Assembly: GCF_000146505.1 (NCBI RefSeq)
Contig: NC_017448.1
Location: forward strand, 3,690,001-3,722,000
Length of the DNA: 32,000 nt
Origin: Fibrobacter succinogenes subsp. succinogenes S85
GTDB lineage: Bacteria > Fibrobacterota > Fibrobacteria > Fibrobacterales > Fibrobacteraceae
Reading direction: 5' to 3'
Shown here: one piece after another, positions 1,717-25,709 of the stretch
Numbering within the stretch: the stretch's first letter is position 1
Layout: every line of letters begins with the position of its first letter
Made by a program: the position numbers and the translations under genes
The notes under the pieces: model-generated
Told to the model about the DNA's origin: nothing
Seen by the model: the letters and a program-made list of their open reading frames with translations, nothing else
Databases searched by the model: none

Positions 1717-3723
1717 TTATTTGGAGTCCGTCGTGCTAGGTGCTGGTGCTTTCGGCGTTTCCGCTGCTTGAGTGATTGGCTTTAGCGGAACTTGAATCTT
1801 GGGCTGCGCAGGTTGAGCGGTTTGCTTCACGACTTCAGGCATTGGAACGTCTTTATGGGCTGCGGCGGCAAGCTTTGGCATTTGCGGAGGAGCAACCGTT
1901 TTTTCGGCAGGCTGCTTGGCTGGAGTTTCCGCCTTGGCCGTTGTTTCCGTTTTTGTCGAAGTAGACGTCTTTGCTGGTGTGGCCGTTGGTGCGGGGGCGG
2001 CAACCTTAGACTGGATCGTTGCGGCTGCCTTTGCATTTGCTGGGGCGTTTGCTGCCGGAGCCGTGCTAGATGCTGCAGGGATTGTCTTTGGTGCCGGTGC
2101 GGGAGCAGGGGCTGCTGCGGTCTTGGCCTGGGCGGGTTTTGCCTGTGCAACGACCGGAGCTTCGGCGGGGAGGTTTGCGATGTGGTCAAAGTAGGCCTGC
2201 ATCAAAGCCTTGTAGAACATGTCGCCGAGCAGCTGGTAGCCGGCGGTCTTGAAGTGGACCTTGTCTTTCTTGGCGAGGTCAGCCTTTTCCCACTTGGCCA
2301 TGGAACCTAGGCCTCCCATGATGGAAAACTTGTCCCAGACACCTGCCTTGTGCTTGTCGGCAAGCATAAAGAATGCCTTGCGTGCGACTTCACCGTTCGG
2401 GTGCTGCACGTATTTTTTCTTGCGGACCTTGCGGTAAGAGTCGTTGTTCGTCTCGAAAATGAACGCCGTCTTGGGGCTCACCTTGCGGATGCGCTTGATG
2501 AGCATGTCGTAATCTTCGCGGAATGCCTTGTCGTTAAAGACATCCACATTGGCGTCGTTAATGCCGATGGCGAAAATCACGAGGTCCGGCTTGTAGTAGG
2601 ACATTTCTTTTTCAAAGAGCGGGCATGTTTCCTCAAAGTAGTTTGAAACCTTGGCTCCGTTGATGCCGACGTTCGTGTACGTGATGCCGGGTGCGTTGTT
2701 CTCTGCCAAAATGCCCGTGAGCGTAAAGTGTGGGCGAGGCGGAACCGTATCAGCGGCAACGGAATCCTGTGCTGCTTGCAAGTCTTCGTCGCGGTTCAGG
2801 CAGTTCGTGTCAAGAACGTCTTCGCAGTCGCCCTGGAACATCGAGTCTGCGGCGACTGCCTGTGCCATTTGCTGTGCGGAACTTGCCGGAGGCGTAATGC
2901 CGAGCGAATCCATGCGCAAGGAGTCGGCGACGCGGGCGAGCGAGTCTGCGCGGGCCACAGAATCCTTGTAGAGCGAGTCTGTGATGAAGGCGGCAACTTC
3001 GGCTTGCTTGGTCGTATCTGCCCAGCGGAATGCTATCTGGATCGTGTCGATCGGACGCGGGCTCGTGAAAACGTAGCTCTGGCTAGAGGCATCGAACGTT
3101 CCAAAGACGTCCATGGAATCGATGCGGAGCACCGGTTCAACGTCGTTGCTGTCGCTATAGCCGAAAACTCTAAAGCTCGTTTCGCCCCAAATCGGTTCGG
3201 TATTGTACTTGTCCAAAAGGAGCGTGATCTCGGCACGCGGGTCGCGAGTGCTGATGGCAATGCCAAGGAGACCAAGCGGTTTAGTGATTTCGTGCTGGAC
3301 GTTCTTGTTCTTGTCCCAGATGCCTTTATAATAGCTAGCGTAACTTGCGGGGGTGTTTGTCCTAGCTGCTGAATACGGGAATACGAAACCGCGACCTGCC
3401 GAAGCGCCCGGATATTCCTTTACCAGGTGTTCGCGGATGCGGCCCGAGATGACGTCTGCCTGCAAGTGCGAACCGCCAATGTGGAGGATGCGCACCTTGC
3501 CCCTGTTCTCGAAAACGAGCGTGTCGAGCTTCTTGAAGAATGGCTCGAAACTAGCGCTACCTTGCGGGAACTGGATGGTATTCAAGGACGTATCGATAAA
3601 ATCGTATTTCGTAAAGTCAACGTCATAATAGCCTGGGGTGATTTCCATGTCCTTTGCAGAAACCATGGAACCCATGCTAACGATGCCAAGAATGGCAGCA
3701 ATGACGGCAAGCTTTTTCTTCAC
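1717..3723 (-). CDS. secreted SGNH/GDSL-like hydrolase/acyltransferase paralog with Asp/Ser-rich insert and long Ala/Pro/Thr/Lys-rich C-terminal tail
   Basis: 668-aa ORF with a GTG start, and GGAGGGGG a few nt upstream. Signal-like N-terminus MKKKLAVIAAILGIVSMGSMVSA. SGNH-type blocks are ILHIGGSHLQAD (block I Ser), FAIGINDAN (block III) and DKVHFKTAGY (block V DxxH). It is colinear with the 538-aa ORF upstream. The last ~150 aa are low-complexity A/P/T/K. Confidence 0.7.
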   Translation of the reverse strand: MKKKLAVIAAILGIVSMGSMVSAKDMEITPGYYDVDFTKYDFIDTSLNTIQFPQGSASFEPFFKKLDTLVFENRGKVRILHIGGSHLQADVISGRIREHLVKEYPGASAGRGFVFPYSAARTNTPASYASYYKGIWDKNKNVQHEITKPLGLLGIAISTRDPRAEITLLLDKYNTEPIWGETSFRVFGYSDSNDVEPVLRIDSMDVFGTFDASSQSYVFTSPRPIDTIQIAFRWADTTKQAEVAAFITDSLYKDSVARADSLARVADSLRMDSLGITPPASSAQQMAQAVAADSMFQGDCEDVLDTNCLNRDEDLQAAQDSVAADTVPPRPHFTLTGILAENNAPGITYTNVGINGAKVSNYFEETCPLFEKEMSYYKPDLVIFAIGINDANVDVFNDKAFREDYDMLIKRIRKVSPKTAFIFETNNDSYRKVRKKKYVQHPNGEVARKAFFMLADKHKAGVWDKFSIMGGLGSMAKWEKADLAKKDKVHFKTAGYQLLGDMFYKALMQAYFDHIANLPAEAPVVAQAKPAQAKTAAAPAPAPAPKTIPAASSTAPAANAPANAKAAATIQSKVAAPAPTATPAKTSTSTKTETTAKAETPAKQPAEKTVAPPQMPKLAAAAHKDVPMPEVVKQTAQPAQPKIQVPLKPITQAAETPKAPAPSTTDSK

Positions 3724-3742
3724 TTAACACCCCCTCCGGTAT

Positions 3743-5359
3743 TTAAGGATTTAGCTTTTCTTTGTTCAAGTCGATTACTTTGGTCGTGTCGGCGTTGGCC
3801 TGCTTTTGGTCCGAGAACTTGCGGATATCCTTAAGCTTCGAATCGTTCAGGTGGTGCCTTTCGCGGAACTGGAAGTAATCGTAGTACATGTGGAGTGAAG
3901 AGCAGAAGAGGTCGCCCATGTAAGAGGCGCCTTTGCGCGTAAAGTGTACGTGGTCCGTAAAGCCGAGCGGCGGGGATTTTTTGACCCACTTGATCATGGA
4001 TCCTTCGCCACCCATCACGCGGTGCATATCCCAGTAGGCAAGGCCGTTTTCAAGAGCCACTTCACGCAACATCTTGATGGTAATGCCAAGACCCGGATAA
4101 GTTTGCCATCTTCCGTTAATTTGTTTTGCCATGTCGGCCGGACCGATGAACAAAATGTCTGCATCCGGATTCGCTTTCTTGACGGATTGAATTTGTCTGG
4201 TAATGAGTTTCTTGCTCCAGTCAAGAGTCTTCGGCGTCATGCTCGGGACCATGTTTCCGCCGTATTCCATGATGATGAGCTTTGCGTTCATGGCCTTGTA
4301 AGATTCGGCGAGGAGCTGGCTATCGATCTTGTGGAATACAGTACCCGAGCTACCGCGCATGGCTACGTTGTCCACAGCGACACCGTAAGAACCGTCCACA
4401 GAAATAGCATAGATTTCCGTGCGACCGCTCAGGTAGAGCTTGATGTTCGATGTCGTATCCGGGAGCTTCCACGTATAAACGGTAAGCTTCGTGAACTTTT
4501 CAACAGCCGGAGCGGCTGCGGTTTCTTTCTTGCTCTTGATTTTGAGCTTCGGGGAACCGTCAGCGTTTGTTCCAACCTGTTCCGTCACGTCATGTTCGTA
4601 GGTGAGGCGGAGCTTGAGGCTGCCCTTGTTGCTGGCGAGAACCTTGATGGTAGAGTAGCTACCGACGTGCGGGAACATGTCCTTGCGGCCTTCGCGCTTC
4701 TTGACGCCGATAACGGCAGAACCGTTGAGTTCACCCACCTGGGCCAAAGGTCCATAGCGGTTGTGCGTGGCGTGTTCTTCCTTGGGTCCAAAGATGATGT
4801 AGCGCTGCAAGTCGCCGTTGTTCCACTGCGAGGTTGACTGCGACGGGATGTGCATCACGGCGGGGAGCATGCCCGGGCCGTTACCGCCAAATTCAGTCTG
4901 CAAGTCTTCGCGGATTGTAGACGAAATACGGTCTTCTTCGAGCTGCGAGTCACCGTAATGGATCACGTGGACAACACTAGAATCCTTCTGTGCGTTCTGG
5001 AGATTCGTGAAGAAACGGTCAAACCACGTGAGGTCGTTGTTCGGCAAGTCAAAACGCGTACGGCCTTCCCTAAAGAAGTCCTCGTAGTACTTGAGCGAGT
5101 CCGAATACGCCGCAAATTGCTTTGCCTTGGTTTCTTCCATCATCTGGCGGATGGCGTCTTCCGGGTCGACCTGTTCAACTTTCACCTTGTTTCCGGCGGA
5201 GTCCGTCGTTGTTTCGGCCTTCTCGAAAACCTGGGAAAGTTTCGGGTAGCGCAGCGTCGTATCGCCAATATGGATTCCGTCTTCAGGGTAGGCAAGCGCC
5301 ATCACCCCGAGGACGAGGAACAGAGAAATGATGCTGAGTAATACTTTTACTGGAGTCAT
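3743..5359 (-). CDS. secreted/anchored SGNH/GDSL-like hydrolase/acyltransferase paralog
   Basis: 538-aa ORF with hydrophobic N-terminus MTPVKVLLSIISLFLVLGVMALA. Blocks are HVIHYGDSQLEEDRIS (GDS block I), IIMEYGGNMV (block II Gly) and DHVHFTRKGASY (block V DxxH). Its start lies 2 nt after the hisS stop. Confidence 0.7.
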   Translation of the reverse strand: MTPVKVLLSIISLFLVLGVMALAYPEDGIHIGDTTLRYPKLSQVFEKAETTTDSAGNKVKVEQVDPEDAIRQMMEETKAKQFAAYSDSLKYYEDFFREGRTRFDLPNNDLTWFDRFFTNLQNAQKDSSVVHVIHYGDSQLEEDRISSTIREDLQTEFGGNGPGMLPAVMHIPSQSTSQWNNGDLQRYIIFGPKEEHATHNRYGPLAQVGELNGSAVIGVKKREGRKDMFPHVGSYSTIKVLASNKGSLKLRLTYEHDVTEQVGTNADGSPKLKIKSKKETAAAPAVEKFTKLTVYTWKLPDTTSNIKLYLSGRTEIYAISVDGSYGVAVDNVAMRGSSGTVFHKIDSQLLAESYKAMNAKLIIMEYGGNMVPSMTPKTLDWSKKLITRQIQSVKKANPDADILFIGPADMAKQINGRWQTYPGLGITIKMLREVALENGLAYWDMHRVMGGEGSMIKWVKKSPPLGFTDHVHFTRKGASYMGDLFCSSLHMYYDYFQFRERHHLNDSKLKDIRKFSDQKQANADTTKVIDLNKEKLNP

Positions 5360-7899: not shown

Positions 7900-7922
7900 G
7901 CCCACGGGTGAAACCCGTGGGC
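7900..7922. terminator. bidirectional hairpin terminator between mdh and the convergent paralog gene
   Basis: 9-bp stem GCCCACGGG / CCCGTGGGC with loop TGAAA. It is followed by GTTTTCTTTT on the plus strand and by TGTTTTCG on the minus strand. Confidence 0.6.
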
Positions 7923-7971: not shown

Positions 7972-8913
7972 TTACTTCAATATAATCTTCTTTGCGAAAT
8001 TGACGTTTTTCCCGTTGACGTGAATCATGTAGACTCCTGCATCGAGTGAAGCGAGGTTGAGCGAAGCTGTTGTGATATCGATTGTCCCCCTGACGACCGT
8101 TTGGCCTTGGGTGTTGACGATATCGACTGTCGCTGCGGATTTGATTCCTGTAAAGCTGAGAGTGCGGCCGGCAAGAATTGCCTTGGCTAAAGACTCTCCG
8201 CGAATAGCCTTGATGGCATTGCTTCCTTCAGGATTGCAGTCTGTATATGGCCCGATTTTTTTGATGTTGAACTTGTAGTCACCATTAGTTGCTTGAAGCT
8301 TGAATTTTACTGCAACCAGTTGCTTCGCGGCTTCTGTACCGGAAATTTTTGTAGCGCCGGTATACCAACTGGGCTGTGCAAATTTAGCCCAGGGAACGGC
8401 CTTGGTTACAGGGGTTGTGCTAGCTTTAGCTAGCTTGAATACCGGGTTTGCGTATTCAATGGTGGCATCGTAAGCTCCGAGACCAAGCTCGAGATCGGCT
8501 GCAATGTCTGATGTGTATGTGATGCAGAGCCCGCCCCAAGCCGTCGCGTCTCCAGCTTCGGGGTCTCCGTCAAGACCTTCTCCGACAATGTTAAAACCGA
8601 TGCCTACAAAGGGGTTGTATTTTAATGTACCCTTAGATAGCGTGGCGGTACCACAGACGCCTTTGCAAGTATCGATAACTGCGTCTAGCGACACCCCGGT
8701 TTCGGTTTGTATATCTGCAGGCCATTCAACTTTTGATTGTCCTCCGTCTCCATCATCGGCATAACTGAACCAATAACCTGAAGTTTCGGAACCGTTGTCA
8801 AGTCCGGTATTGACCTGTGATATTCCATCTTCGCCGTTCCATGTTTGAAATGTTCCGGCGTATGCTGCGGATACAGCAAAAATGGCTGTTGCCAGCGTGA
8901 TTGCGTGTTTCAT
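7972..8913 (-). CDS. secreted protein: signal peptide + uncharacterised ~230-aa Cys-containing module + T9SS-type C-terminal sorting domain (paralog 1, most divergent)
   Basis: Signal peptide MKHAITLATAIFAVSAAYA. Module motifs are TWNG, GYWFSYADDGDGG, CKGVCGTATL, GIGFNIVGE, GDATAWGGLCITYTSD, LELGLG, FAQPSWY and AAKQLVAVKFKLQA. The C-terminus LDAGVYMIHVNGKNVNFAKKIILK fits the Por/T9SS CTD pattern. RBS GGGAGGA precedes the ATG. Confidence 0.8.
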   Translation of the reverse strand: MKHAITLATAIFAVSAAYAGTFQTWNGEDGISQVNTGLDNGSETSGYWFSYADDGDGGQSKVEWPADIQTETGVSLDAVIDTCKGVCGTATLSKGTLKYNPFVGIGFNIVGEGLDGDPEAGDATAWGGLCITYTSDIAADLELGLGAYDATIEYANPVFKLAKASTTPVTKAVPWAKFAQPSWYTGATKISGTEAAKQLVAVKFKLQATNGDYKFNIKKIGPYTDCNPEGSNAIKAIRGESLAKAILAGRTLSFTGIKSAATVDIVNTQGQTVVRGTIDITTASLNLASLDAGVYMIHVNGKNVNFAKKIILK

Positions 8914-9032
8914 GATGTTTCCTCCCTAGTCCAAAAGTGGAACTATAAATAAGATATACTCGTTTTGTATAAATGTTCTGAGGAAATATCAGATAAAATG
9001 AAAAAATATGAATTTATTACGAATTGTATTCT

Positions 9033-9048
9033 TATGATACGTATCATA
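9033..9048. promoter_or_regulatory. perfect 16-bp palindrome TATGATACGTATCATA, candidate operator upstream of paralog 1
   Basis: The self-complementarity was read directly. Related half-sites TATGATACGTTA (9067-9078) and AATGATACGC (13093-13102) lie in the AT-rich promoter regions of this locus. Confidence 0.4.
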
Positions 9049-9102
9049 TGTATAACAAAGTCTGTTTATGATACGTTATGTGCTATATAGAAAATTGTTG
9101 AA

Positions 9103-10083
9103 TTATTTTAATACAATCTTCTTTGCGAAATTCACGTTTTTCCCGCTCACACGCACCATGTAAATTCCCGCATTGAGCGAGGCAAGGCTAAGCGTTGCGG
9201 CGTTATTTGTTGCGTTGTTAATGGCGCCCTTCATCACGACTTGTCCAAGGGAATTCAAAACCTCGGTAGTTGCTGTGGACTTGATTCCCGTGAATCCGAG
9301 CGTGCGCCCGTTCAAAACAGCGCTGACTGTGGATGTTCTACGAGTGACCTTGATATCGTCCGGTGGTGTGGGGATTCCGCATTTTTCTGGGCATGTTCCA
9401 TCTTTAGGCCCGACGGCGCAAATTCTGAATTCGTAATCACCTGGTTCTGCCTGAATTTTAAAATGAATTCCGACAAGTTGCTTTGCTGCTGTTTCTCCGT
9501 CAAATTTGACAGAGCCATCGTACCATGATGGTTGCTTAAAGTCGGACCAAGATACAACAACCCTCTTGTCCGTTTTGGTGGCGGGGAGGGTTACTGCTGG
9601 GTTTGCGTAATTTATCGTTGAATCGGTGGCATCACCAAGGCCAAGTTCCAGAGATATGTCTGTATCCGATGTGTAGGTCACGCAGAGTCCTTCCCAGGCG
9701 GAGGCGTCTCCTGCGACTATCGTGTTGTCCGTGGGGGATGCTTCCCCGACGATGTTGAATCCCATGCCGGAGAACGGTTTTTGAGTTGATGTGCCGCTAT
9801 AGAGAGTGGCTGTCCCGCATACTCCTTCACAATGCTCAATAACCGCATCCATATAGTGAGGTTCGCATGAATAATATTCGTGACATGGTTGAACTGGATA
9901 AACGATTTTTGATTCACCGCCATTGAAGGAATCATTAAAATCGTACCATATTCCGTAAGTATTGGTTTCGTTGCCTAGTCCGGTTTCTACAGCGGGGACT
10001 CCGTCGGCTCCGTTCCATGTTTCAAATGTGCCTGCGAAAGTTGATGTTACTACGCAAAGTGCTGTTAACGTAAACTTTTTCAT
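9103..10083 (-). CDS. secreted protein: signal peptide + uncharacterised module + T9SS-type CTD (paralog 2)
   Basis: Start taken at ATG 10083 (MKKFTLTAL...), preceded by AGGAGG. The track start 10101 is an upstream GTG. Motifs are TWNGADG, CEGVCGTATL, GDASAWEGLCVTYTSDTD, LELGLG, INYANPA, SWSDFKQPSWYDG, ETAAKQLVGIHFKIQAEPGDYEFRICAVGPKDGTCPEKCG and the CTD GIYMVRVSGKNVNFAKKIVLK. Confidence 0.85.
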   Translation of the reverse strand: MKKFTLTALCVVTSTFAGTFETWNGADGVPAVETGLGNETNTYGIWYDFNDSFNGGESKIVYPVQPCHEYYSCEPHYMDAVIEHCEGVCGTATLYSGTSTQKPFSGMGFNIVGEASPTDNTIVAGDASAWEGLCVTYTSDTDISLELGLGDATDSTINYANPAVTLPATKTDKRVVVSWSDFKQPSWYDGSVKFDGETAAKQLVGIHFKIQAEPGDYEFRICAVGPKDGTCPEKCGIPTPPDDIKVTRRTSTVSAVLNGRTLGFTGIKSTATTEVLNSLGQVVMKGAINNATNNAATLSLASLNAGIYMVRVSGKNVNFAKKIVLK

Positions 10084-10120
10084 CGTAGCCTCCTGAGTCA
10101 CCCCGGACTGTCTAACCTTT

Positions 10121-10240
10121 CATGTCATTCCACTTCGTGGCTTGACTGCTGCGGGTATCAAATGCGAGTTCACAAGTGACCTCTCGCTTGATACCCTTGC
10201 ATGTCATTCCCGGCGCCTGTCCTCGCTTGACGGGAATGAC
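10121..10240. repeat. structured intergenic element with nested inverted and direct repeats (REP/MITE-like)
   Basis: CATGTCATTCC occurs twice (10121-31 and 10200-10). There is a 9-bp inverted repeat GGGTATCAA / TTGATACCC (10153-61 / 10189-97) and a 10-bp inverted repeat GTCATTCCCG / CGGGAATGAC (10203-12 / 10231-40). A small hairpin CCAC-TTC-GTGG is also present. No U-tract follows any stem. Confidence 0.6.
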
Positions 10241-10264
10241 CGGGAATCTCCATCTCGTATAGCT

Positions 10265-11242
10265 TTACCTCAGTACAATCTTCTTTGCAAAATTGACGTT
10301 TTTCCCGCTCACGCGCACCATATAAATTCCCGCTTTAAGCGATGCAAGGCTAATCGTTGTGGCGTTATTCGTGGCGTTGTTAATGGCGCCCTTCATCACG
10401 ACTTGTCCAAGAGAATTCATCACTTCAGCTGTTGCGGAGGACTTGATTCCCGTGAATCCAAGCGTGCGCCCGTTCAAAATTGCGCTGACTGCGGAAGTCC
10501 CGCGAGCAATTTGAATCCCTGCACTTGGCATTCCGCATTTTTCTGGGCATGTGCCGTCTTTGGGGCCGACCGCGCAAATGTTAAAACGGTAATCGCCGTC
10601 TTCTGCTTGTATCTTGAACCTGACCGTAGCGAGTTGCTTTGCTGCGGTTTCACCGTCGAATTTGACGGCTCCGTTGTACGACGAAGGTTGCTTAAAATCG
10701 GACCAGCTGAAAACCATTCTATTGCTAGTCTTGGAGGCGGGGAGATTGACTGCCGGATTTGCGTAATTGATTGTGGAATCGGTAACTTCGCCAAGGCCGA
10801 GTTCTAGAGCTATGTCCGTATCCGATGTGTAGGTCACGCAGAGTCCGCCCCAAGAGGAGGCGTCGCCTGTGACTAGTGTCCAATCTTTTTCTGAAAGTTG
10901 TCCGACGACATTGAAACCTATACCCGTAAATGCTGTATGGGGTGAATTCCATTTGTTGAGAATAGCTGTCCCGCACATCCCTTTGCAATCATCGATGATG
11001 GGTTCAAGCCAGTATATTGAACAATCTCGGCATGGATCGACATCCCAATAGACTTTGGACGCGCCTCCCTCACCGTCATCTTCATAGGTGAACCAGAATC
11101 CGCTCATTTCTGTTTCGTTGAGAAGCCCGGTTTCAACTCGGCAGATATTGTAAGCGTTTTCGTCTGCACCGTTCCATGTGATAAACGGCCCTGCAAAAGT
11201 TGATGTTGCTGCGCAAAGTGCTGTCAATAAAAACTTTTTCAT
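10265..11242 (-). CDS. secreted protein: signal peptide + uncharacterised module + T9SS-type CTD (paralog 3)
   Basis: MKKFLLTALCAATSTFA signal peptide, with RBS AGGAG upstream. The module motifs match paralog 2. The C-terminal ~80 aa are nearly identical to paralogs 2 and 4. Confidence 0.85.
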   Translation of the reverse strand: MKKFLLTALCAATSTFAGPFITWNGADENAYNICRVETGLLNETEMSGFWFTYEDDGEGGASKVYWDVDPCRDCSIYWLEPIIDDCKGMCGTAILNKWNSPHTAFTGIGFNVVGQLSEKDWTLVTGDASSWGGLCVTYTSDTDIALELGLGEVTDSTINYANPAVNLPASKTSNRMVFSWSDFKQPSSYNGAVKFDGETAAKQLATVRFKIQAEDGDYRFNICAVGPKDGTCPEKCGMPSAGIQIARGTSAVSAILNGRTLGFTGIKSSATAEVMNSLGQVVMKGAINNATNNATTISLASLKAGIYMVRVSGKNVNFAKKIVLR

Positions 11243-11298
11243 CGTAAACTCCTAAGTCATCCCGGACACTGTTCCAGGGTCAGTATCTCGTATTTATT

Positions 11299-12972
11299 TT
11301 ACCTCAGTACTATTTTCTTTGCAAAATTCACGTTTTTCCCGTTCACACGCACCATGTAAATGCCTGCGTTAAGCGATGTAAGGTTAAGCGTGGCTGCGTT
11401 GTTTATGGCGCCCTTCATCACGACTTGCCCAAGCGAATTCAAAACCTCGACGGTGGCTGTGGACTTGATTCCCGTGAATCCTAGCGTGCGCCCGTTCAAA
11501 ATAGCTTTGACTGCGGATGTTCCACGAGCAATTTGAATCCCTGCACTTGGCGTCCCGCATTGTTCCGGGCATGTCCCGTCTTTGGGGCCGACCGCGCAAA
11601 TGTTAAAACGGTAATCGCCGTCCTCTGCTTGTATCTTGAATTTGACCGCGGTGAGTTGCTTTGCTGCAGCTTCTCCATCGATTTTAATGGATCCGTCGTA
11701 CGACGAAGGCTGTTTAAAGTCGGACCAGCTGAAAATCATTCTATTGCCAGTCTTGGAGGTGGGCAATTTGACTGCCGGACTTGCATTATCTATTATGGGA
11801 TCGTCGGTATCGTCAATGTCGAGTTCCAGAGATATGTTTGTATCCGATGTATAGGTCACGCAGAGTCCGCCCCAAGAAGAGGCATCGCCTGTGACTAGAG
11901 AGAAATCGTGTTCTGAAATCGTTCCGACAACGCAGAAGGCTACATTTGCGGAAGGAACGTGGGATGAAGTTGCTTTTCTGAGATGGGCTGTTCCGCACAT
12001 TCCTTTGCAATAATCGATGATTGGGTCATATTTATTGGGTATCCATTCTGGGCTTAAATCAATGTCCCAAAGTATTTTGGACTCGGCACCATCGCTATCG
12101 TCTGAATAGGCTACCCAGTATCCGCTTATATCTGTTTCGTTGCGGAGCCCAGTCTCAACTTGGCTGGTTACGTTTTCGTCTGCTCCGTTCCATGTGATAA
12201 ACTGTCCTGCGGATGTTGACTTTCCGCATTTTTCCGGGCATGTTCCGTCTTTCGGGCCGATGGCGCAGATGTTGAAGTTGTATGAGCCGGGATCTGCCTG
12301 AATTTTAAAGTGTATGGCGGCGAGCTGTTTTGCTGCCGTCTCGCCGTTGATTTTAACGGCTCCATCGTACCATGAAGGCTGTTTAAAGTCGGACCAGTTG
12401 ACGACGACTTTGTTTCCGTATTTTCCGTTGGGCGATAGAATGTTTGGAGCTTTTGCGGCGGGAAGTGTTATTGCTGGATTTGCGTAATTGATTGTAGAAT
12501 CGACGGTTTCACCAAGACCGAGTTCCAAGGCAATATCTGTGTCTGACATGTAGGTCACGCAGAGCCCGCCCCAGGCTGATGCATCACCAATATCTGGCGC
12601 TGGGTTTGTTTCTGAGGTTTCGCCGACAACATTGAAACCCACACCGACATACGGATCGTGTTCATAAGATTCTTTGCTTAGAATCGCTGTGCCAGCAAGG
12701 CCTTTGCATTCCATGATGACGGGATCTAAAGATTGGTTGATGTTGTCGTATGCATCTATCTGTGCTGGCCAAGCGATTTTAGATGTTCCCAAGTTGTTGT
12801 TATCGTTGTAAGAATACCAGTAGCCTTCTGTTTCAAGTCCGTTGCCAAGTCCTGTATGGATCTGAAAGTTTGGAAGGAATTCTTCAAAAATTTTGGCTGC
12901 ATCCCAGGTTTTGAATGAACCTGCGTAAACGACAGATGCGGCGCATAGTGCGACCAACAAAGATCTTTTCAT
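11299..12972 (-). CDS. secreted protein with TWO tandem copies of the uncharacterised module + one T9SS-type CTD (paralog 4, fused)
   Basis: 557 aa. Module A spans roughly aa 18-250 and is paralog-2-like. Module B begins at GQFITWNGADENV around aa 255 and is paralog-3-like. Each carries CxGxxGTA, GDASxWGGLCVTY, SDFKQPSxYDG, AAKQL, FKIQA and NICAxGPKDGTCPExCG. There is a single CTD, GIYMVRVNGKNVNFAKKIVLR. Confidence 0.85.
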   Translation of the reverse strand: MKRSLLVALCAASVVYAGSFKTWDAAKIFEEFLPNFQIHTGLGNGLETEGYWYSYNDNNNLGTSKIAWPAQIDAYDNINQSLDPVIMECKGLAGTAILSKESYEHDPYVGVGFNVVGETSETNPAPDIGDASAWGGLCVTYMSDTDIALELGLGETVDSTINYANPAITLPAAKAPNILSPNGKYGNKVVVNWSDFKQPSWYDGAVKINGETAAKQLAAIHFKIQADPGSYNFNICAIGPKDGTCPEKCGKSTSAGQFITWNGADENVTSQVETGLRNETDISGYWVAYSDDSDGAESKILWDIDLSPEWIPNKYDPIIDYCKGMCGTAHLRKATSSHVPSANVAFCVVGTISEHDFSLVTGDASSWGGLCVTYTSDTNISLELDIDDTDDPIIDNASPAVKLPTSKTGNRMIFSWSDFKQPSSYDGSIKIDGEAAAKQLTAVKFKIQAEDGDYRFNICAVGPKDGTCPEQCGTPSAGIQIARGTSAVKAILNGRTLGFTGIKSTATVEVLNSLGQVVMKGAINNAATLNLTSLNAGIYMVRVNGKNVNFAKKIVLR

Positions 12973-13271
12973 AATCCACTCTCCTAATCAAACTTGCCCA
13001 ACATAAAATATAATTAATTTGGGTGCGTTTTATATTAGAAAAATGTTTCAAATAAATGAATGATTTCACGTGAATAAACTGCGTAAAACCTAAATGATAC
13101 GCTTTGTATTATATGGCTGTTGCTGATTGTTTAAACTGTTGACTTTTAATTTGTGAAAATGTGGATTGTTTTCTGTTTTTGCTCTAAAAATACGCAATGT
13201 CATAAATAAATATGTGGACTTTTTATAATTTTTGATATATATTTAAGAAAGTTGTTGGTGTGGACGCGGAG

Positions 13272-14948
13272 ATGTTTATGAGGACTAGGGGTTCTGGATT
13301 TTTTACGACGTTGGAATGGGCCTTTTTTGGCCTCTTTTGCCTATTTGGCGCTTTTGGGGCGCAATCGGCTTTTGCCGCAAATCCGTTGACGACGGACTTT
13401 TATTCTGCGGATGCCGCAGCCCTCGTGCATAACGACTCGCTCTTTATTTTTGCTGGCCACGATGAACAGGGGCCGCAGGGCAATAACAATAAAGCCTTCA
13501 TCATGAACGACTGGCACGTGCTCGTGACCGACGATATGGAGCATTATCACGATTACGGGGCGGTTTTGAGCGTCAAGACGTTCAAATGGGCGAATGCGAG
13601 CGCTTTTGCGGGCCACTGTGAATACCGAAATGGCAAGTTTTACTGGTATGTGGCGGTCCATCACGGAACCATCAAGGAAAATGGGAGTGAAGGTTTTGCG
13701 ATTGGCGTTGCTGTCGCGGATCATCCGTCCGGACCGTGGAAAGATGCGATTGGGCAGGCACTTATCACCGACAATACGCCGAATGACGTGAAATTGAATA
13801 TTGACCCCGCGATTTTTTACGATGGTGACGATATCTGGATGTATTGGGGCTCGTGGAGTGCGGGTCGCCGCGTGAAACTCAAGGAAAATATGATCGAGCT
13901 TGCAAGTACGCCCGAAGATATCAAGATCAAGGACTTTTTCGAGGCTCCGTGGATGCACTATTTCCGAGGCAATTATTACTTCAGCTATGCCTCGGGTTAC
14001 CCTTCGACGACGAACTACTCCATGGCGCCGAGCCTGAACGGACCGTGGACGCAAAAAGGCGTCATCAACGATAAAATGGACAATTCCGAGACGAACCATC
14101 AGGCAATTTTCAAGTATCTCGGACATTGGTATTTCATGTACCACGGCGCAAATTCTCCGGGCGGCTGGACGTACCGCCGTTCCGTGAATATCGATTACCT
14201 CTATTACGACCGCGATGGCTTAATCCAGAAAATCAAGCATACGGATGGCGTGGATCCGGTCAACAATGCGCTTCTCGAAGAGGGCGGTTACCGCTTGACG
14301 GTTTCGCATAGCAATTTGGCTCTCGAAGATAACGATGGTATCGTGGTGCAGCAAACTGCAGACGAAAAGAACGAAGCGCAACTTTGGGTGCTTGCGCATG
14401 GCGATTCGGCACGTTATTACACGCTCAAGAATTTTGCAACGGGCCGCTACTATTGCCCGCCCAAGACGTTGTTGGATACGGTGAAAACTTCTGAAACATC
14501 TTGTGAAATCCGCATTGAAAATGCATCTGCAAAGAAGGGTTACTTCTTGTTCGCGGATTACGATAGCGATTACCTCGGCGATGTGCTGAACATTTCGAAG
14601 GAAGTCGGGATGCCGGTCATCACGTGGGTTCGCACAGGAACGGACAACCAAAAAGTGCAATTTGCAAAAGCTGAATTGCCGAAAGTTGAACCGCCGACGG
14701 ACTCCGGCAATGGTGGAACGACGGGGATTGCGCGCGGTATTTTGAATGCGCCGGCTTTGCAACAGGTTCACTACGATGCGAGTGCTCGCGTGATTCGTTT
14801 GGGCGCTGAAGCGTCTTGGGCTTTGCTTGATGTAAATGGTGTTGTTGTGCGTCGTGGCTATGGTCGTGAAATCCAAGTGCGTTCCGTTCGTTCGGGAATG
14901 TACTTTGTTCGCGCAGCCCGTACTACAGCAAAGGTTTTGGTGAAATAA
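13272..14948 (+). CDS. glycoside hydrolase family 43 (xylosidase/arabinofuranosidase-type) + ricin-B/CBM13-like domain + T9SS-type basic C-terminal domain
   Basis: After the signal peptide (...GAQSAFA) the GH43 signatures are FYSADAAALVHNDSLFIFAGHDE, NIDPAIFYDGDDIWMYWGS and FEAPWMHY. A beta-trefoil-like region follows with AQLWVL. The C-terminus reads SGMYFVRAARTTAKVLVK. The start is uncertain: GTG 13260 in the track, or ATG at 13272 or 13278. Confidence 0.85.
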   Translation: MFMRTRGSGFFTTLEWAFFGLFCLFGAFGAQSAFAANPLTTDFYSADAAALVHNDSLFIFAGHDEQGPQGNNNKAFIMNDWHVLVTDDMEHYHDYGAVLSVKTFKWANASAFAGHCEYRNGKFYWYVAVHHGTIKENGSEGFAIGVAVADHPSGPWKDAIGQALITDNTPNDVKLNIDPAIFYDGDDIWMYWGSWSAGRRVKLKENMIELASTPEDIKIKDFFEAPWMHYFRGNYYFSYASGYPSTTNYSMAPSLNGPWTQKGVINDKMDNSETNHQAIFKYLGHWYFMYHGANSPGGWTYRRSVNIDYLYYDRDGLIQKIKHTDGVDPVNNALLEEGGYRLTVSHSNLALEDNDGIVVQQTADEKNEAQLWVLAHGDSARYYTLKNFATGRYYCPPKTLLDTVKTSETSCEIRIENASAKKGYFLFADYDSDYLGDVLNISKEVGMPVITWVRTGTDNQKVQFAKAELPKVEPPTDSGNGGTTGIARGILNAPALQQVHYDASARVIRLGAEASWALLDVNGVVVRRGYGREIQVRSVRSGMYFVRAARTTAKVLVK

Positions 14949-14959
14949 TTTTAAGGAGT

Positions 14960-17044
14960 ATGGAAATGAAGGTTTTGAATTTTGCGAATCTCGTGAAGAG
15001 CGCGACTCTTGCAACGATTGGCGCTTTTGGCGTCTCTGCTGTATCGGCTGCCGATTGGTACGCCAAGGACAACTTGCAACCGGGTCATGACCCGAGCGTG
15101 GTGCGTTTTGAGGATGGTTACGCCCTCATGAGCACAAACAATAATTTGCAACTGTGGACATCCGAAGATGCTTACACATGGCAAAACCACAAATCGACGG
15201 TGAGCAAAATCCCGCAATGGGCTTACACGTATGCGCCTACAACCGAAGGCATTTGGGCGCCTGACATTTATTACATGAACGGCGAATACCGCGTGTATTA
15301 CTGCGTCTCCGTTTTCGGCAAGCGCACGTCTGCGATTGGCTATCAGTCCACAAAGTCGATTATGCCTGGCACAACGGGCTACGGCTGGACGGACCATGGC
15401 CACGTTTTCCATACGGTGGCATCGGACAAGTACAATGCAATTGACGCCGATGTCGTTCGTGATACCGAAGGCAATTATTGGATGGCTTTTGGTTCGTTCG
15501 GTCTTGGAATTCAGTTGATTAAGTTGGATGCAAAGACGGGCTATCAGGCTAGTGACAACAAGACCATCTATAACATTGCACGCCGCACGAGTAAGGCAAG
15601 CGGTGGTGCCGAAGAAGGACCGAGTCTCATTGAACACGGGGGCAAGTATTTCTTGTTTACTGCATGGGATATCTGCTGCCAGCAGGGCGCAAATATTGAA
15701 CAGACAACGTACAAGACTGCTTACGGTCGTGCTGATAAAGTAACCGGTCCGTACAAGGACCGCGCGGGTTACGATATGGCTAATGGTGGCGGTACAATTC
15801 TTATGGAACGCTACGGACGTTATGTCGGTCCGGGCGGCGGCGAAGCTTTCCAAGACTTGAACCGCGTGCGTTTTGTGCATCACTATTACGATCTTAACGG
15901 CGACAAGTTCAATCATATTCATATTCGCGATGTTGTGTTTACCGAGGATAACTGGGCTGAGATGGGACAGCCCTTCCTCGGGCGTTATTTAAGTGCCGAA
16001 GTCGAACACGGCGCTTTGACGCGTGCAGTCTCGGGTGACCTCGCAATTACGCGCAGCAATACGGCTTCGAACGGCGAATACCTTGCTTACATCAACACGG
16101 CGGGTTCCAAGATTCGTTTGCCGATGAACATCATGCAAGCGGGCGAGTACTTATTGCGTTACCGCTATGCAAATGGCGGCGAAGGCGATGCTACGCACAA
16201 AGTCACTGTCAATGGCAAGTCTCAAACCGTGACGCTCCCGCCGACAGGTTCTTGGGGAACGTTCCCGGAAAAGTCTATTGTGATGATTCCGGCAACGCTC
16301 AAGCGCGGTGGCAACTTCATCGAAATTGAACCGCAGCCGAACGGATTCTTCTCGGAACTCGACCGCATCGACTTCTTGCGCGTGATTCGCGATACGATTC
16401 CGGCAAACGGCTTTGATAATGGTATCCGCGTGCGCCTCACGGACAAGGATGAATTTGCTATCAAGGATGGCGGCTACGCCATTTTTGAAAACGTTGTTGC
16501 CGATTCCATCAAGAGTGACGAAGTTTCTATCCAAGTGAAAAATGCAACCGCAGGCAAGCTCGCCATTCGTGATGGTGCAAAGAACGGAATCGTCCTTGCC
16601 GAATGTGACCTTTCAACGGCTAAGGCTGCAGCCAATGGCTGGTCTGAGGCAAACTGCGGAACGCTCAAAAGCAAAACGGGCATCAAGGATTTTTACCTGA
16701 CCGCGTCTGGTATTTCCGGCGAAGCCATTGTCGGAAATATAATGTTCAAGTTGAACACCCCAGAGTCAAGTTCCAGCAGCGTTTCCGCGGAATCTAGCTC
16801 CAGCGAAATGATTGTGAGCAGTTCGAGCGAATCCTCTGTGGCGCTCCCGGCTGTTCGTCCGACATTGAACTACTCGGTGACTCAAATCCCTAACGGTTAC
16901 CGCGTACACTTCGATAATGCTGGCGTTCATCAGGCTTACCTCTTGAATCCGATGGGGCAAATTGTCTCCCGTAAAAAAACTTACGGTACCGATATCGAAT
17001 TTAATAACCTTCCCAAAGGCCGATACGTTGTAAAAGTGAAGTGA
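14960..17044 (+). CDS. GH43 (arabinanase-like clade) + CBM35/6-like + CBM6-like + Ser-rich linker + T9SS-type CTD
   Basis: Catalytic-domain motifs are GHDPSVV, IWAPDIYY, YNAIDADV and AEEGPSLIEHGGKYFLF. The first CBM reads AEVEHGAL...SNGEYLAYIN...AGEYLLRYRYANG...PPTGSWGTF. The second CBM reads IKDGGYAIFENV...KDFYLTASG. The tail is LPKGRYVVKVK. An alternative start at ATG 14966 has better spacing from AAGGAG. Confidence 0.88.
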   Translation: MEMKVLNFANLVKSATLATIGAFGVSAVSAADWYAKDNLQPGHDPSVVRFEDGYALMSTNNNLQLWTSEDAYTWQNHKSTVSKIPQWAYTYAPTTEGIWAPDIYYMNGEYRVYYCVSVFGKRTSAIGYQSTKSIMPGTTGYGWTDHGHVFHTVASDKYNAIDADVVRDTEGNYWMAFGSFGLGIQLIKLDAKTGYQASDNKTIYNIARRTSKASGGAEEGPSLIEHGGKYFLFTAWDICCQQGANIEQTTYKTAYGRADKVTGPYKDRAGYDMANGGGTILMERYGRYVGPGGGEAFQDLNRVRFVHHYYDLNGDKFNHIHIRDVVFTEDNWAEMGQPFLGRYLSAEVEHGALTRAVSGDLAITRSNTASNGEYLAYINTAGSKIRLPMNIMQAGEYLLRYRYANGGEGDATHKVTVNGKSQTVTLPPTGSWGTFPEKSIVMIPATLKRGGNFIEIEPQPNGFFSELDRIDFLRVIRDTIPANGFDNGIRVRLTDKDEFAIKDGGYAIFENVVADSIKSDEVSIQVKNATAGKLAIRDGAKNGIVLAECDLSTAKAAANGWSEANCGTLKSKTGIKDFYLTASGISGEAIVGNIMFKLNTPESSSSSVSAESSSSEMIVSSSSESSVALPAVRPTLNYSVTQIPNGYRVHFDNAGVHQAYLLNPMGQIVSRKKTYGTDIEFNNLPKGRYVVKVK

Positions 17045-17064
17045 TTTTTTGCAAATAAATTGTA

Positions 17065-17081
17065 CCGAAAAATCCTTTCGG
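17065..17081 (+). terminator. weak hairpin CCGAAA-AATCC-TTTCGG after the GH43 gene
   Basis: 6-bp AT-rich stem about 20 nt after the stop. The trailing T-run is poor. Confidence 0.25.
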
Positions 17082-17127
17082 AATTTAAATTAAATAGTGT
17101 ATGCTGGTGTGTGGTTAAAGGAGTCGT

Positions 17128-19125
17128 ATGATTCGTTGTTCTAGAATTTGCACCGTTGCATTCCTCTTTGCAGGCCTCTCGTTTGAGGCTGCTTTTGCCG
17201 CTGATTGGTATGCCAAGGAAACCCGTTGGGCGGGCCATGATCCCGACATTATCCGCTACGAGGATGGCTATGCGCTTGCGACAACGGATAATCACATGCT
17301 TATGCAGTTTTCCGAGGACGCGCTGAACTGGAAAAATGGCGACCCTGCCATGCCGGAATTCTCGAAGTGGCTTTACAAGTACGCGCCGAACATGATTGAC
17401 ATCTGGGCGCCGGATATTCATTATATCGGCGGGGAATACCGCATGTACTATTGCGGTTCCGAAATGGGCATCCGCTCGTCGGGTATGGGTTTCATGTCGA
17501 GTAAGGAAATCGACCCGACAAAGCCAGGCTACGGCTGGACGGACCAGGGCGAAGTGATTCACACGGTTAAGAGCGATTCGTACAACGCGATTGACGCGGC
17601 GGTGCTCAAAGATCTTGACGGAAAAGTCTGGATGGCGTTTGGTTCGTGGGGGACGGGTATCCACATTCTCGAACTGGACGAAAAAACGGGCAAGGTGAAA
17701 GATGGCGCAAAAATGCAGAATATCGCAAACCGCGGTGGCGCTGGCGTCGAAGGCGCAAGCCTCATTGAACACAACGGAAAGTACTTCCTCTTTACCGCTT
17801 GGGACAATTGCTGCAAAAAAGGCGCTGATCTCGAAAACAACTCTTACAAGACAACGGTCGGGCGTTCTAACCGCATTGATGGCGGCTATGTAGACCGCAG
17901 CGGCAAGGCTCTCTTGAATGGCGGTGGTACGATTCTCCTCAGCCGTTACGGACGCTACTACGGGCCCGCGGGCGGTGAAGCTTTCGAAGATGTGAACCGC
18001 CAACGCTTTGTGAACCACTATTACGACAAGAACGATGGCGGTAATTCTTACATACAAGTGCGCGATATCGTTTGGACCGAAGACAACTGGCCAGAACTGG
18101 GTCAACCGTTTATGGGGCGTTACCTGAGCGCCGAGGCTGAACACGGCATCCTCACGCATGTCGATATCTCGAGCAGTTCCAAGGCTTCGAACGGGGAATT
18201 CTGCGCTTACATCAATTATGACGATAGCAAGATTCGCTTGCCGATGATTATCCCGCAGGCGGGTGATTACCTTATTCGTTACCGTTACGACAACAACTGG
18301 ACCGAAGATGGCGCAAACGGCAGCTCGCATTTTGTGGACATCAACGGCAAAACGCAAGAAGTGCAGTTGCCGCTGACGGGCGCTTGGAGAGAGTTTCCCG
18401 AAAAGTCTGTCGTGTACATTCCGACAAAGCTTAAACGCGGATCAAACTTCATTGAAATCACGAAGGGTAAGCATTACGCAGAACTGGACCGTCTTGATTT
18501 CTTGCGCATCATCCGCGATACGATTCCGGCAAATGGCTTTGATAACGGCATCCGCGTGCGCCTCACTGATAAGGATGAATTTGCCATCAAGGACGGTGGC
18601 TATGCGATTTTCGAAAATGTGATTACCGACTCCATTGTTGGCGTAGGCGTAACCGTTCAGGTGAAAAACAGCGCTGGCGGCACTCTTTCTCTCCGCACCG
18701 AAAGTAAAAAAGGCGATGTGATTTCTAAATGCGAATTGCCCACTGCAGGCGATTCTAAGTGGACTGACGTGCAATGTTCGAACTTGCCGAAGCTCAAGGG
18801 CGTACAGGACTTTTACCTCACGGCGGAAGGCCTTGGTGGCGAAACTCTCGTCGGGAACATCAAGTTCGGGAAGGCGGCGGACTCAAGTTCAGTCGGACTT
18901 TACGACAATCCTCGCGTAGCTTCTGCGGCGCATTCTGGACTCAACATCACTTTTGATCGCGGTTCCCAAACGATTTATCTCTCGATGGATGCCCCTTGGT
19001 CGCTGTTTGACATGAACGGCGTTGTAATCAAGTCTGGTTTTGGTCGCGAAATTCATGCAAATGCTATGCCTCGTGGTTTGTATTTTATTCGTTCCGGCAA
19101 CCAAGGTCTGCGCTTTAGGCTGTAA
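17128..19125 (+). CDS. GH43 (arabinanase-like clade) + CBM35/6-like + CBM6-like + T9SS-type CTD; paralog of 14960..17044
   Basis: Same architecture and motifs as its paralog: GHDPDII, IWAPDIHY, YNAIDAAV and GVEGASLIEHNGKYFLF. RBS AAAGGAG lies upstream. The tail reads MPRGLYFIRSGNQGLRFRL. Confidence 0.88.
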   Translation: MIRCSRICTVAFLFAGLSFEAAFAADWYAKETRWAGHDPDIIRYEDGYALATTDNHMLMQFSEDALNWKNGDPAMPEFSKWLYKYAPNMIDIWAPDIHYIGGEYRMYYCGSEMGIRSSGMGFMSSKEIDPTKPGYGWTDQGEVIHTVKSDSYNAIDAAVLKDLDGKVWMAFGSWGTGIHILELDEKTGKVKDGAKMQNIANRGGAGVEGASLIEHNGKYFLFTAWDNCCKKGADLENNSYKTTVGRSNRIDGGYVDRSGKALLNGGGTILLSRYGRYYGPAGGEAFEDVNRQRFVNHYYDKNDGGNSYIQVRDIVWTEDNWPELGQPFMGRYLSAEAEHGILTHVDISSSSKASNGEFCAYINYDDSKIRLPMIIPQAGDYLIRYRYDNNWTEDGANGSSHFVDINGKTQEVQLPLTGAWREFPEKSVVYIPTKLKRGSNFIEITKGKHYAELDRLDFLRIIRDTIPANGFDNGIRVRLTDKDEFAIKDGGYAIFENVITDSIVGVGVTVQVKNSAGGTLSLRTESKKGDVISKCELPTAGDSKWTDVQCSNLPKLKGVQDFYLTAEGLGGETLVGNIKFGKAADSSSVGLYDNPRVASAAHSGLNITFDRGSQTIYLSMDAPWSLFDMNGVVIKSGFGREIHANAMPRGLYFIRSGNQGLRFRL

Positions 19126-23624: not shown

Positions 23625-24035
23625 TCAAGGCGACCGACTTTTATTTTCACGGAAAAACATCAAATAAGATGTCCCGAGCGCATCGGCTAACTTCTTTGAC
23701 ATGAGCATAGAAATGGGCCAGGCTCCTCGTTCAAGCGAATTATAATTCTGTTTTGCGAGACCAACTTTTTGTGCCAACTGCGCTTGCGTAAGTCCTGCGT
23801 TTATGCGCATTATTTTCAGCGTCTTGGCTGGATTTATATTTTTTTTCGCCTTCTTGTACCAATCCATTTCTTCCACAGGCTCGAGAACGTCATCGTCGTC
23901 TTCGATACGGACGGAATCGGGGAACAGCGCGTCCAAAAAGGCAATGACAGGTTTCGGAATATTCTTGCCCGAAACCTTGAACGACACCGGTTCATCAGTG
24001 TTCTGCATAGGGGGCGCTTCCACGACTGCCTGCAT
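23625..24035 (-). CDS. XRE-family helix-turn-helix antitoxin (HigA-like position)
   Basis: The C-terminal HTH reads MRINAGLTQAQLAQKVGLAKQNYNSLERG. It lies immediately downstream of, and overlaps, a RelE/ParE-like toxin ORF. Confidence 0.75.
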   Translation of the reverse strand: MQAVVEAPPMQNTDEPVSFKVSGKNIPKPVIAFLDALFPDSVRIEDDDDVLEPVEEMDWYKKAKKNINPAKTLKIMRINAGLTQAQLAQKVGLAKQNYNSLERGAWPISMLMSKKLADALGTSYLMFFRENKSRSP

Positions 24036-24270
24036 AAGTAACCTCCACAGTTATTCCTTTTTCCGTTTCTATCCAGCACGCCACCCATTTGTGGGAAAGG
24101 TGACAATGATGAGTAGACGTTCCTGCCAATATTCCGTAATTTGGCCAATTTGTTCTGACGGGGCCATTCATCCGTATGTCGTCAACAAGCAACGCTAGTT
24201 TTTCTTGCTGCTTTTGAGGCATTGCTGAGACAGCCCGAGAGACTCTTCTCGACATTAAAATAGTGTACAT
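23995..24270 (-). CDS. RelE/ParE-superfamily type II toxin (ParE-like/HigB-like arrangement, toxin first)
   Basis: 91 aa. The pattern NGPVRTNWPNYGILAGTSTHHCHLSHKWVACWIETEKGITVEVTYAGSRGSAPY matches the recalled ParE-like toxin family consensus (WPN...HCHL..WVACW....EV.Y.GSRE.APY). The true start may be the second ATG, at 24255. Confidence 0.7.
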   Translation of the reverse strand: MYTILMSRRVSRAVSAMPQKQQEKLALLVDDIRMNGPVRTNWPNYGILAGTSTHHCHLSHKWVACWIETEKGITVEVTYAGSRGSAPYAEH

Positions 24271-25691: not shown

Positions 25692-25709
25692 TTATGAAAA
25701 AGAATCAAT

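Follow-up and report, generated by a model that had tools for sequence, protein, structure and literature searches.

Fibrobacter succinogenes is a highly effective degrader of cellulose in the rumen. It has neither cellulosomes nor free cellulases, and how it then adheres to fibre and organizes its enzymes is still a puzzle. What, then, is the role of four tandem genes that stand beside a set of glycoside hydrolase (GH) genes in F. succinogenes subsp. succinogenes S85 and encode proteins built on a module for which present annotation has no name? The genes lie on the minus strand at positions 7972 to 12972 of the window, by which we mean the whole stretch of 32,000 nucleotides analysed here (contig NC_017448.1, positions 3,690,001 to 3,722,000). 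An earlier note, made from the sequence alone, had described them as four consecutive genes, each encoding a signal peptide, the module and a tail of about 80 aa, with five copies of the module between them, and the open reading frames (ORFs) and the alignment bear this out. The module belongs to the beta-sandwich superfamily (galactose-binding-domain-like) that holds carbohydrate-binding module (CBM) family 11 and CIA30, in which it forms a divergent branch expanded in Fibrobacteraceae. We give a probability of roughly 60% to the reading that, through this CBM11/CIA30-like module, the array products act as non-catalytic polysaccharide-binding proteins, exported by the type IX secretion system (T9SS), displayed on the cell surface and probably also borne on vesicles. 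They belong to a large, exported, transcribed and GH-linked family that has so far been annotated by its secretion tail only, and they are easily testable candidates for the adhesion or substrate-capture step of Fibrobacter.

Four exported proteins built on one module

Exact look-up matched the array genes, g1 to g4, to deposited S85 proteins (Table 1), which carry the names 'hypothetical protein' or 'T9SS type A sorting domain-containing protein', ADL25340 being entered as 'conserved domain protein'. Each protein begins with a type I-like signal peptide, judged here by reading the sequence and not by a predictor, in which a K/R n-region and a hydrophobic core precede an A-x-A-like site just before G18 or G20 (...AYA, ...TFA or ...VYA, followed by G), as is expected of Sec-dependent T9SS cargo. 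At the extreme C-terminus all four match PF18962 (31.5-33.2 bits; Pfam cut-off 27) and TIGR04183 (35.0-42.2 bits; cut-off 23), and all four share the tail motif G(I/V)YM(V/I)(R/H)V.GKNVNFAKKI(V/I)L(K/R). The T9SS-type tails that the earlier note had read by eye are thus supported by profiles, and the four proteins are predicted type A T9SS cargo with a C-terminal domain (CTD) of about 80 aa. The CTDs are 56-87% identical in pairs, and those of g2 to g4 are 84-87% identical.

Between signal peptide and tail stand the five module copies, which are 213-239 aa long, 48-66% identical in pairs and invariant at 70 columns of their alignment. The length of about 230 aa first reported for the module describes a shared unit but not a uniform one; the conserved motif blocks reported with it are all visible in the alignment. 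The g1 module is the most divergent (48-52% to the other copies), while those of g2 to g4 are 56-66% identical among themselves, module B of g4 and the g3 module sharing 66%. Direct repeats in the DNA join the array genes at 61-87% identity, and those named D1-D5 tie g3 to g4 at up to 87%. Because of these repeats, and because the database holds more than 300 homologues, the array is not a chance pattern.

When 205 module copies were aligned, the positions conserved in at least 80% (numbered as in the g2 module) were W6, T17, G27, W29, D34, G39, S41, W45, P46, C68, G70, C72, G73, P86, F92, D109, W113, G115, C117, Y120, P145, L149, W162, F165, F191, F202 and I204. Aromatic, Gly, Pro and Cys residues dominate this set; only D34 and D109 are conserved acidic positions, and the lack of a conserved acid pair argues against a glycosidase. 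Variable positions cluster in loops at about 44-66, 78-86, 97-108 and 133-143. The description of the module as Cys-containing holds for three family-wide Cys (68, 72 and 117), but the pattern is not uniform, g1 having four Cys and module A of g4 being short of one. From the co-occurrence of Cys, the pairing 68-72 and 117-214 is suggested for disulfides, with 205-218 in addition in the subfamily of the window.

A predicted CBM11/CIA30-type fold and a remote sequence link

The module had originally not been recognised as any named CBM, as the Fibrobacter major paralogous domain or as a fibro-slime domain, and profile searches agree with this. The module part of the four array proteins has no Pfam-A or NCBIfam match apart from a weak one to Sde0182_C, and neither Fib_succ_major (PF09603/TIGR02145) nor the fibro-slime domain is matched in the four window proteins. 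The Sde0182_C match, found in g4 (E 0.0018, with no single stretch significant), was set aside as noise or generic beta-sandwich similarity. The sequences of PDB chains were searched with a profile of the five modules, with another of 79 proteins and with one distant module by itself, and gave only Ser-rich low-complexity matches and noise.

The predicted structure is more informative. An AlphaFold2 model of the g2 module (44 sequences) is an all-beta sandwich with two short helices, with a mean predicted local distance difference test (pLDDT) of 87.4 and a predicted template modelling score (pTM) of 0.87. The module of a second Fibrobacteraceae protein, P0430, which is 33-39% identical to the window genes, was modelled with a pLDDT of 92.6 and a pTM of 0.89. 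For both models the top Foldseek match was CBM11 (E 6.5e-6 for g2 and 5.9e-7 for P0430, probability 1.0), the CBM11 entries 1v0a, 6r31 and 6r3m giving E 5.9e-7 to 2.6e-5 and a target-normalized TM-score (TMt) of 0.48-0.62 over the two models. NDUFAF1/CIA30 (7zkq_A, 7zkp_A) was matched by both at E 1.3e-5 to 8.6e-5, probability 1.0 and a query-normalized TM-score (TMq) of 0.51-0.54. Next after NDUFAF1, the g2 model matched the N-terminal CBM-like domain of GH50 agarases, a laminarin-binding CBM, CBM29, CBM30, CBM61 and CBM22; the ranking was the same for the P0430 model, whose scores were better (NDUFAF1 at TMq 0.54, then GH50, CBM30, CBM61 and CBM15). The CBM30 entries 1wzx, 1wmx and 2c24 scored E 1.9e-4 to 2.3e-3 with TMt of about 0.5. 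As modelled, the module has a fold of both the CIA30 and the CBM11 type, in line with the beta-sandwich CBM or CIA30-like fold that had been suspected. Of the checks that the earlier note had proposed, the Pfam profile search thus returned no significant match for the module and the AlphaFold/Foldseek search with the g2 module placed CBM11 first.

A sequence link to the same superfamily comes from relatives of the array proteins. In a Pfam scan, CIA30 (PF08547) was found in 5/79 relatives at E ≤ 0.1, with a best E of 3.3e-8, and in two distant relatives the match spans most of the PF08547 model and falls within a module copy. In P0160 it covers aa 578-731, inside module copy 3 (aa 563-773), with 31.7 bits, which is above the 24-bit gathering score; in P0262 it covers aa 524-682, inside module copy 2 (aa 501-698), with 23.7 bits, just below that score. 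For the modules of the window this would amount to remote homology and not to membership by the Pfam rule. Because the two fold models agree and the Pfam CIA30 matches lie inside module copies of relatives, we assign the module to a branch of the CIA30/CBM11 superfamily. The proposal of a new family holds only at the level of present annotation, in which neither Pfam nor NCBIfam nor CAZy flags the module; the superfamily is already described, and one relative passes the CIA30 threshold.

Relatives, anchors and genomic setting

An exhaustive search with the five-module profile found 693 representatives (50%-identity clusters) at E ≤ 1e-3 and 292 at E ≤ 1e-30, and many relatives carry two to four module copies. 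No catalytic domain, glycoside hydrolase or other, was found in the four window proteins, as the earlier note had stated, or in about 110 relatives scanned. The domains that do accompany the module, namely Fib_succ_major (8/79), beta-helix/Cthe_2159, Flg_new, LRR and collagen, are of the binding or adhesin type; fn3-like domains occur as well. Two kinds of anchoring occur. In the first, as in the window, a type I signal peptide is combined with a T9SS tail; in the second, a lipoprotein signal (L-x-A-C) leads into short repeats of Cys/Trp hairpins and long linkers rich in Ser, and the modules stand at the C-terminus. That the two anchors are interchangeable points to a domain acting at the cell surface.

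All 29 related loci found in species-representative genomes are labelled Fibrobacter, by a scan that used narrow peptide patterns, so that 'Fibrobacter only' holds for close relatives. As far as named sequences show, the family appears nearly confined to Fibrobacteraceae. The cluster of P0149, a four-module relative, contains one partial member labelled as a Bacteroidales metagenome-assembled genome (MAG), the other named relatives being labelled Fibrobacter or Fibrobacteraceae; this member may have been misbinned, or else it hints that the module has spread beyond Fibrobacteraceae. A phage origin of the module was also checked, and no module copies were found in viral contigs.

The adjacency to GH43 genes, first seen in this window, is confirmed and recurs elsewhere. 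The array sits between a malate dehydrogenase (MDH) gene and three divergently transcribed GH43 genes (13260..19125), and beyond MDH the window holds two GDSL esterase genes and the gene for histidyl-tRNA synthetase (HisRS). The order MDH, array, GH43 is kept in 11/29 Fibrobacter loci, with one to four array genes each. In these 11 loci the identity to the window proteins is 93-100% for MDH, 89-99% for HisRS and 74-93% for GH43, and the array genes are 52-84% identical to the best window paralogue. Since the flanks are conserved but the array genes are only 52-84% identical, the slot is stable while its content turns over fast. Other branches of the family have other GH neighbours. In L007 (3216-9634) and L009 (2214-8560), pairs of module plus T9SS-tail genes lie between a T9SS-tailed GH5 cellulase gene and a GH8 gene, and in Fibrobacteraceae MAGs (loci L030, 4037-10915; L031, 652-10444; L032, 2037-8924) a single gene of this kind follows GH18-GH8-GH5. 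The Fibrobacter MAG contigs L023-L026 (L023, 2542-11434) carry three or four tandem genes of the lipoprotein type, with two or three modules each and without a T9SS tail.

The array is transcribed. In the S1 Table of PMC4668043, Fisuc_2616 to Fisuc_2620 have 68-98 reads per kilobase per million (RPKM) on cellulose and 9-65 on glucose, and the array genes bear no CAZy flag. Fisuc_2616, taken as g1 from the run of consecutive accession numbers, has 74 RPKM on cellulose vs 9 on glucose, a difference of about 8-fold, and the adjacent GH43 genes have 3-13 vs 1-5 RPKM (PMC4668043 S1 Table). In the main texts of the literature searched, the array locus tags are not mentioned.

A putative surface-displayed polysaccharide binder

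We favour polysaccharide binding because the fold search ranks CBM11 first, aromatic residues are conserved, catalytic domains are absent, two kinds of anchor are used, the genes are linked to GHs and the array is transcribed. As to the ligand, arabinoxylan or arabinan is suggested, by the GH43 neighbours only.

The following model, in which we infer the surface location, tail cleavage, disulfides, cleft residues and glycan ligand, would account for these features. The Sec signal peptide would take each array protein across the inner membrane, and folding would occur in the periplasm; recognition of the type A CTD would then allow the T9SS to move the protein over the outer membrane. By analogy with Porphyromonas, the tail may be cleaved and the protein linked to the surface. 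For S85, a proteomic study has proposed that fibre-degrading enzymes carry their T9SS signal in the basic C-terminal domain, which is cleaved off as they attach to the surface (PMC6851124). The displayed part would consist of one or two beta-sandwich modules, holding a plant cell-wall polysaccharide chain in a concave cleft to which W6, W29, W45, W113, Y120, W162 and F165 (g2 module) and a probable metal-binding loop, D34..G39.S41, may contribute. The variable loops at about 44-66, 78-86 and 97-108 could tune specificity, and tandem paralogues could provide several related specificities, or multivalent attachment to the fibre, beside the secreted hemicellulases.

Parts of this design can be recognised in known systems. 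CBM11, represented by CtCBM11 from the Lic26A-Cel5E protein of Clostridium thermocellum, matches both module models best in structure; it is a beta-sandwich whose concave sugar cleft is lined by aromatics, in CtCBM11 by Tyr22, Tyr53, Tyr129 and Tyr152. However, the structure-based identity is 10-15%, the Fibrobacter module is 40-60 aa longer and has three conserved Cys, and, rather than being appended to an enzyme, it stands singly or in tandem and is combined with a T9SS tail or a lipoprotein anchor. CIA30/NDUFAF1 is the only family tied to the module by sequence, via P0160 and P0262, and its fold match is given above; yet NDUFAF1 is a mitochondrial assembly factor (complex I) that binds a peptide loop, whereas the Fibrobacter proteins are exported and GH-linked. 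CBM30 (C. thermocellum Cel9D-Cel44B) is of the same beta-sandwich superfamily and is used by F. succinogenes cellulases, the family having been founded on F. succinogenes CelF, but its structural match is weaker than that of CBM11 and comes without sequence similarity, and CBM30 is enzyme-appended. The F. succinogenes cellulase Cel51A carries both CBM11 and CBM30 (PMC6851124 Table 1). A like organization is seen in the SusE/F-like surface glycan-binding proteins (SGBPs) of Bacteroidota and in T9SS-secreted CBM proteins, in which a tethered, non-enzymatic beta-sandwich binder is encoded beside GHs for the same substrate; SGBP-B of B. thetaiotaomicron (7kwc) is among the weaker fold matches of the P0430 model. 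These proteins are nevertheless of another sequence family, the window encodes no SusC/D-type transporter, and the Fibrobacter genes form tandem paralogue arrays of variable copy number.

Several observations weigh against the putative polysaccharide binding. CIA30 (PF08547, gathering score 24 bits) gives no match in the four window proteins even at E ≤ 1, and CBM_11 (PF03425) gives none in these proteins or in the approximately 110 relatives scanned. The TM-scores of the models against CBM11 are modest (0.39-0.62), the modelled module exceeds CBM11 by 40-60 aa, and the location of the conserved aromatics in the cleft is an assumption. The equivalent cleft of CIA30 binds a peptide loop, not sugar (PMC9668296). 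In about 110 relatives the module is not fused to any catalytic domain, a fusion that is the usual hallmark of classical CBMs; in the CAZy sense a CBM is a module within a carbohydrate-active enzyme, and among these relatives the association with GHs is genomic only. The lipoprotein-type arrays L023-L026 are flanked by or interleaved with DUF4423 genes, not GH genes. Finally, none of the four proteins turned up in the supplementary tables that accompany the cell-envelope proteome PMC6851124, and the array locus tags are absent from the supplements of the omics papers PMC6204037 and PMC8092306.

What follows from the favoured reading depends on the ligand. Should this be a polysaccharide, the module would represent a new CBM family and supply concrete candidates for adhesion; if not, it would be another lineage-specific beta-sandwich surface protein. 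The family is large, lineage-restricted and unannotated, and its fold, its remote homology and the logic of a tethered binder beside GHs are familiar. A bolder claim, that the module founds a new Fibrobacteraceae-specific carbohydrate-binding or enzyme-organizing family which is a major overlooked part of fibre attachment and degradation without cellulosomes, seems to us doubtful. If it were true, dozens of paralogues per genome, in variable tandem arrays beside GH43 or GH5/GH8 sets, would be substrate-specific surface receptors or, alternatively, cohesin-like adaptors that recruit T9SS-secreted enzymes.

Other possible roles of the module

NDUFAF1 holds a peptide with this same fold, and the module is free of enzyme fusion, so that a protein-binding role and a surface-coat role each keep a small probability. 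The first of these, which we think unlikely, is that the cleft holds a peptide loop as in CIA30/NDUFAF1, and that the array proteins are a surface scaffold or adaptor organizing T9SS-secreted enzymes, or an adhesin to other cells. CBM11 and CIA30 are structurally equivalent, the sugar cleft of one being the peptide cleft of the other, and in NDUFAF1 the ND3 loop is bound in the counterpart of the CBM11 sugar cleft (PMC9668296). The TMq of NDUFAF1/CIA30 is at least equal to that of CBM11, CIA30 is the sole sequence-level link, and partners such as LRR, collagen and Flg_new are typical of protein-protein adhesins; the absence of enzyme fusion would also fit. Moreover, F. succinogenes is reported to assemble cellulases into a multiprotein complex at its surface, with no known scaffoldins (PMC6851124). 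Nonetheless, the best E-values belong to carbohydrate-binding modules, and nearly all other matches are CBMs or CBM-like glycosidase domains. The genomic linkage to glycoside hydrolases is repeated and strong, the conserved set of five Trp plus Tyr and Phe is typical of sugar-binding sites, and no candidate partner motif is known.

It is also conceivable, but decidedly unlikely, that the array proteins are mainly a fast-evolving surface coat whose copy number and sequence vary under pressure from phage, predatory protozoa or host antibodies, ligand binding being secondary. The flanks of the array, from MDH to GH43, are far better conserved than the array genes themselves, but comparing across paralogue turnover inflates the divergence. 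The number of genes varies from one to four per locus, most of the variability is held by the loops, and the homogenised CTDs of g2 to g4 (84-87%) beside their less similar modules (56-66%) suggest that gene conversion has gone along with divergence of the exposed part. The core, with its many aromatics, is nevertheless highly conserved in the 205 modules, which argues for a binding function that has been kept. Expression is moderate, unlike that of a dominant coat protein, and the viral contigs gave no phage copy of the module.

That the module is a cryptic beta-jelly-roll enzyme, like GH11, GH12, GH16 or some lyases, acting on hemicellulose alongside GH43, is very improbable: its 213-239 aa fit jelly-roll glycosidases rather than typical CBMs, the LELGLG strand has a Glu, hemicellulase genes lie all around and GH11 xylanases are among the weak Foldseek matches, but the latter stand far down the lists (probability 0.5-0.85, TMq about 0.3), far weaker than CBM11, CIA30 and CBM30, the LELGLG Glu is less than 80% conserved and so leaves D34 and D109 without a catalytic pair, no enzyme profile of Pfam or NCBIfam matches, and tandem modules, up to four in one polypeptide, are typical of binding modules, not of catalytic domains.

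Features of the window

The coordinates of the array, of its parts and of the neighbouring features are collected in Table 1.

Table 1. Array genes, their parts and neighbouring features (positions in the window; module and CTD positions also in aa of the product).
Feature	Position	Strand	Description
g1	7972..8913	-	FSU_3186 (ACX76200, WP_014547219), 313 aa
g1 signal peptide		-	aa 1-19
g1 module	8218-8856	-	aa 20-232
g1 T9SS CTD	7975-8211	-	~aa 235-313
g2	9103..10083	-	FSU_3187 (ACX76201), 326 aa; ATG start matches deposited protein
g2 signal peptide		-	aa 1-17
g2 module	9361-10032	-	aa 18-241
g2 T9SS CTD	9106-9354	-	~aa 244-326
g3	10265..11242	-	ADL25340/ACX76203, 325 aa
g3 signal peptide		-	aa 1-17
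g3 module	10517-11191	-	aa 18-242
g3 T9SS CTD	10268-10516	-	aa 243-325
g4	11299..12972	-	FSU_3189/Fisuc_2620 (ACX76204), 557 aa, two modules
g4 signal peptide		-	aa 1-17
g4 module A	12205-12921	-	aa 18-256
g4 module B	11539-12204	-	aa 257-478
g4 T9SS CTD	11302-11538	-	aa 479-557
Bidirectional terminator (probable)	7900..7922	both	perfect GC-rich hairpin, 10-bp stem, T-runs on either side
Divergent intergenic region	12973..13259		287 bp, g4 to first GH43 gene
GH43 gene 1	13260-14948	+	ricin-type lectin domain
GH43 gene 2	14960-17044	+	CBM6
GH43 gene 3	17128-19125	+	CBM6
Gene downstream of the GH43 trio	19266-21665		799 aa; fn3 at aa 384-470
Two GDSL-type esterase genes	1717-5359		668 and 538 aa
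Small ORFs, low-GC patch	23625-24270	-
Small ORFs, low-GC patch	25048-26033	+

The hairpin beyond g1 probably closes both the array on the minus strand and the MDH gene on the plus strand, and a promoter/terminator scan found no comparable terminator-like site between the four array genes. In the divergent region upstream of g4, the best sigma-70-like match lies at 13135-13108 on the minus strand (10/12), a match at the level of the consensus only. The older S85 annotation lists an extra 'hypothetical protein' between g2 and g3, Fisuc_2618/ACX76202, with a reported RPKM. This entry is probably spurious, lying on the strand opposite to g3 and overlapping it (10084-10264, or the plus-strand ORF 10142-10807), as no convincing gene fits there.

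Among the neighbours, the first GH43 protein has a C-terminus weakly like a T9SS tail (E 0.05-0.12), unlike the clear tails of the array proteins, and this may be a degenerate CTD or one of a different class. The 799-aa protein encoded downstream of the GH43 trio has fn3 as its sole match, which leaves about 700 aa without one. The two adjacent GDSL-type esterases have N-terminal regions of about 320 aa without assignment, and in other Fibrobacter genomes, too, their genes keep synteny with the array. Searches for tRNAs and Rfam families gave nothing in the window. The small ORFs at 23625-24270 and 25048-26033 lie in a patch of 32% GC, compared with about 50% elsewhere, and include an overlapping, toxin-antitoxin-like pair (a 136-aa protein with an Xre-type helix-turn-helix and a 91-aa RelE/HigB-like protein) followed by three small hydrophobic ORFs; this patch is possibly an acquired islet.

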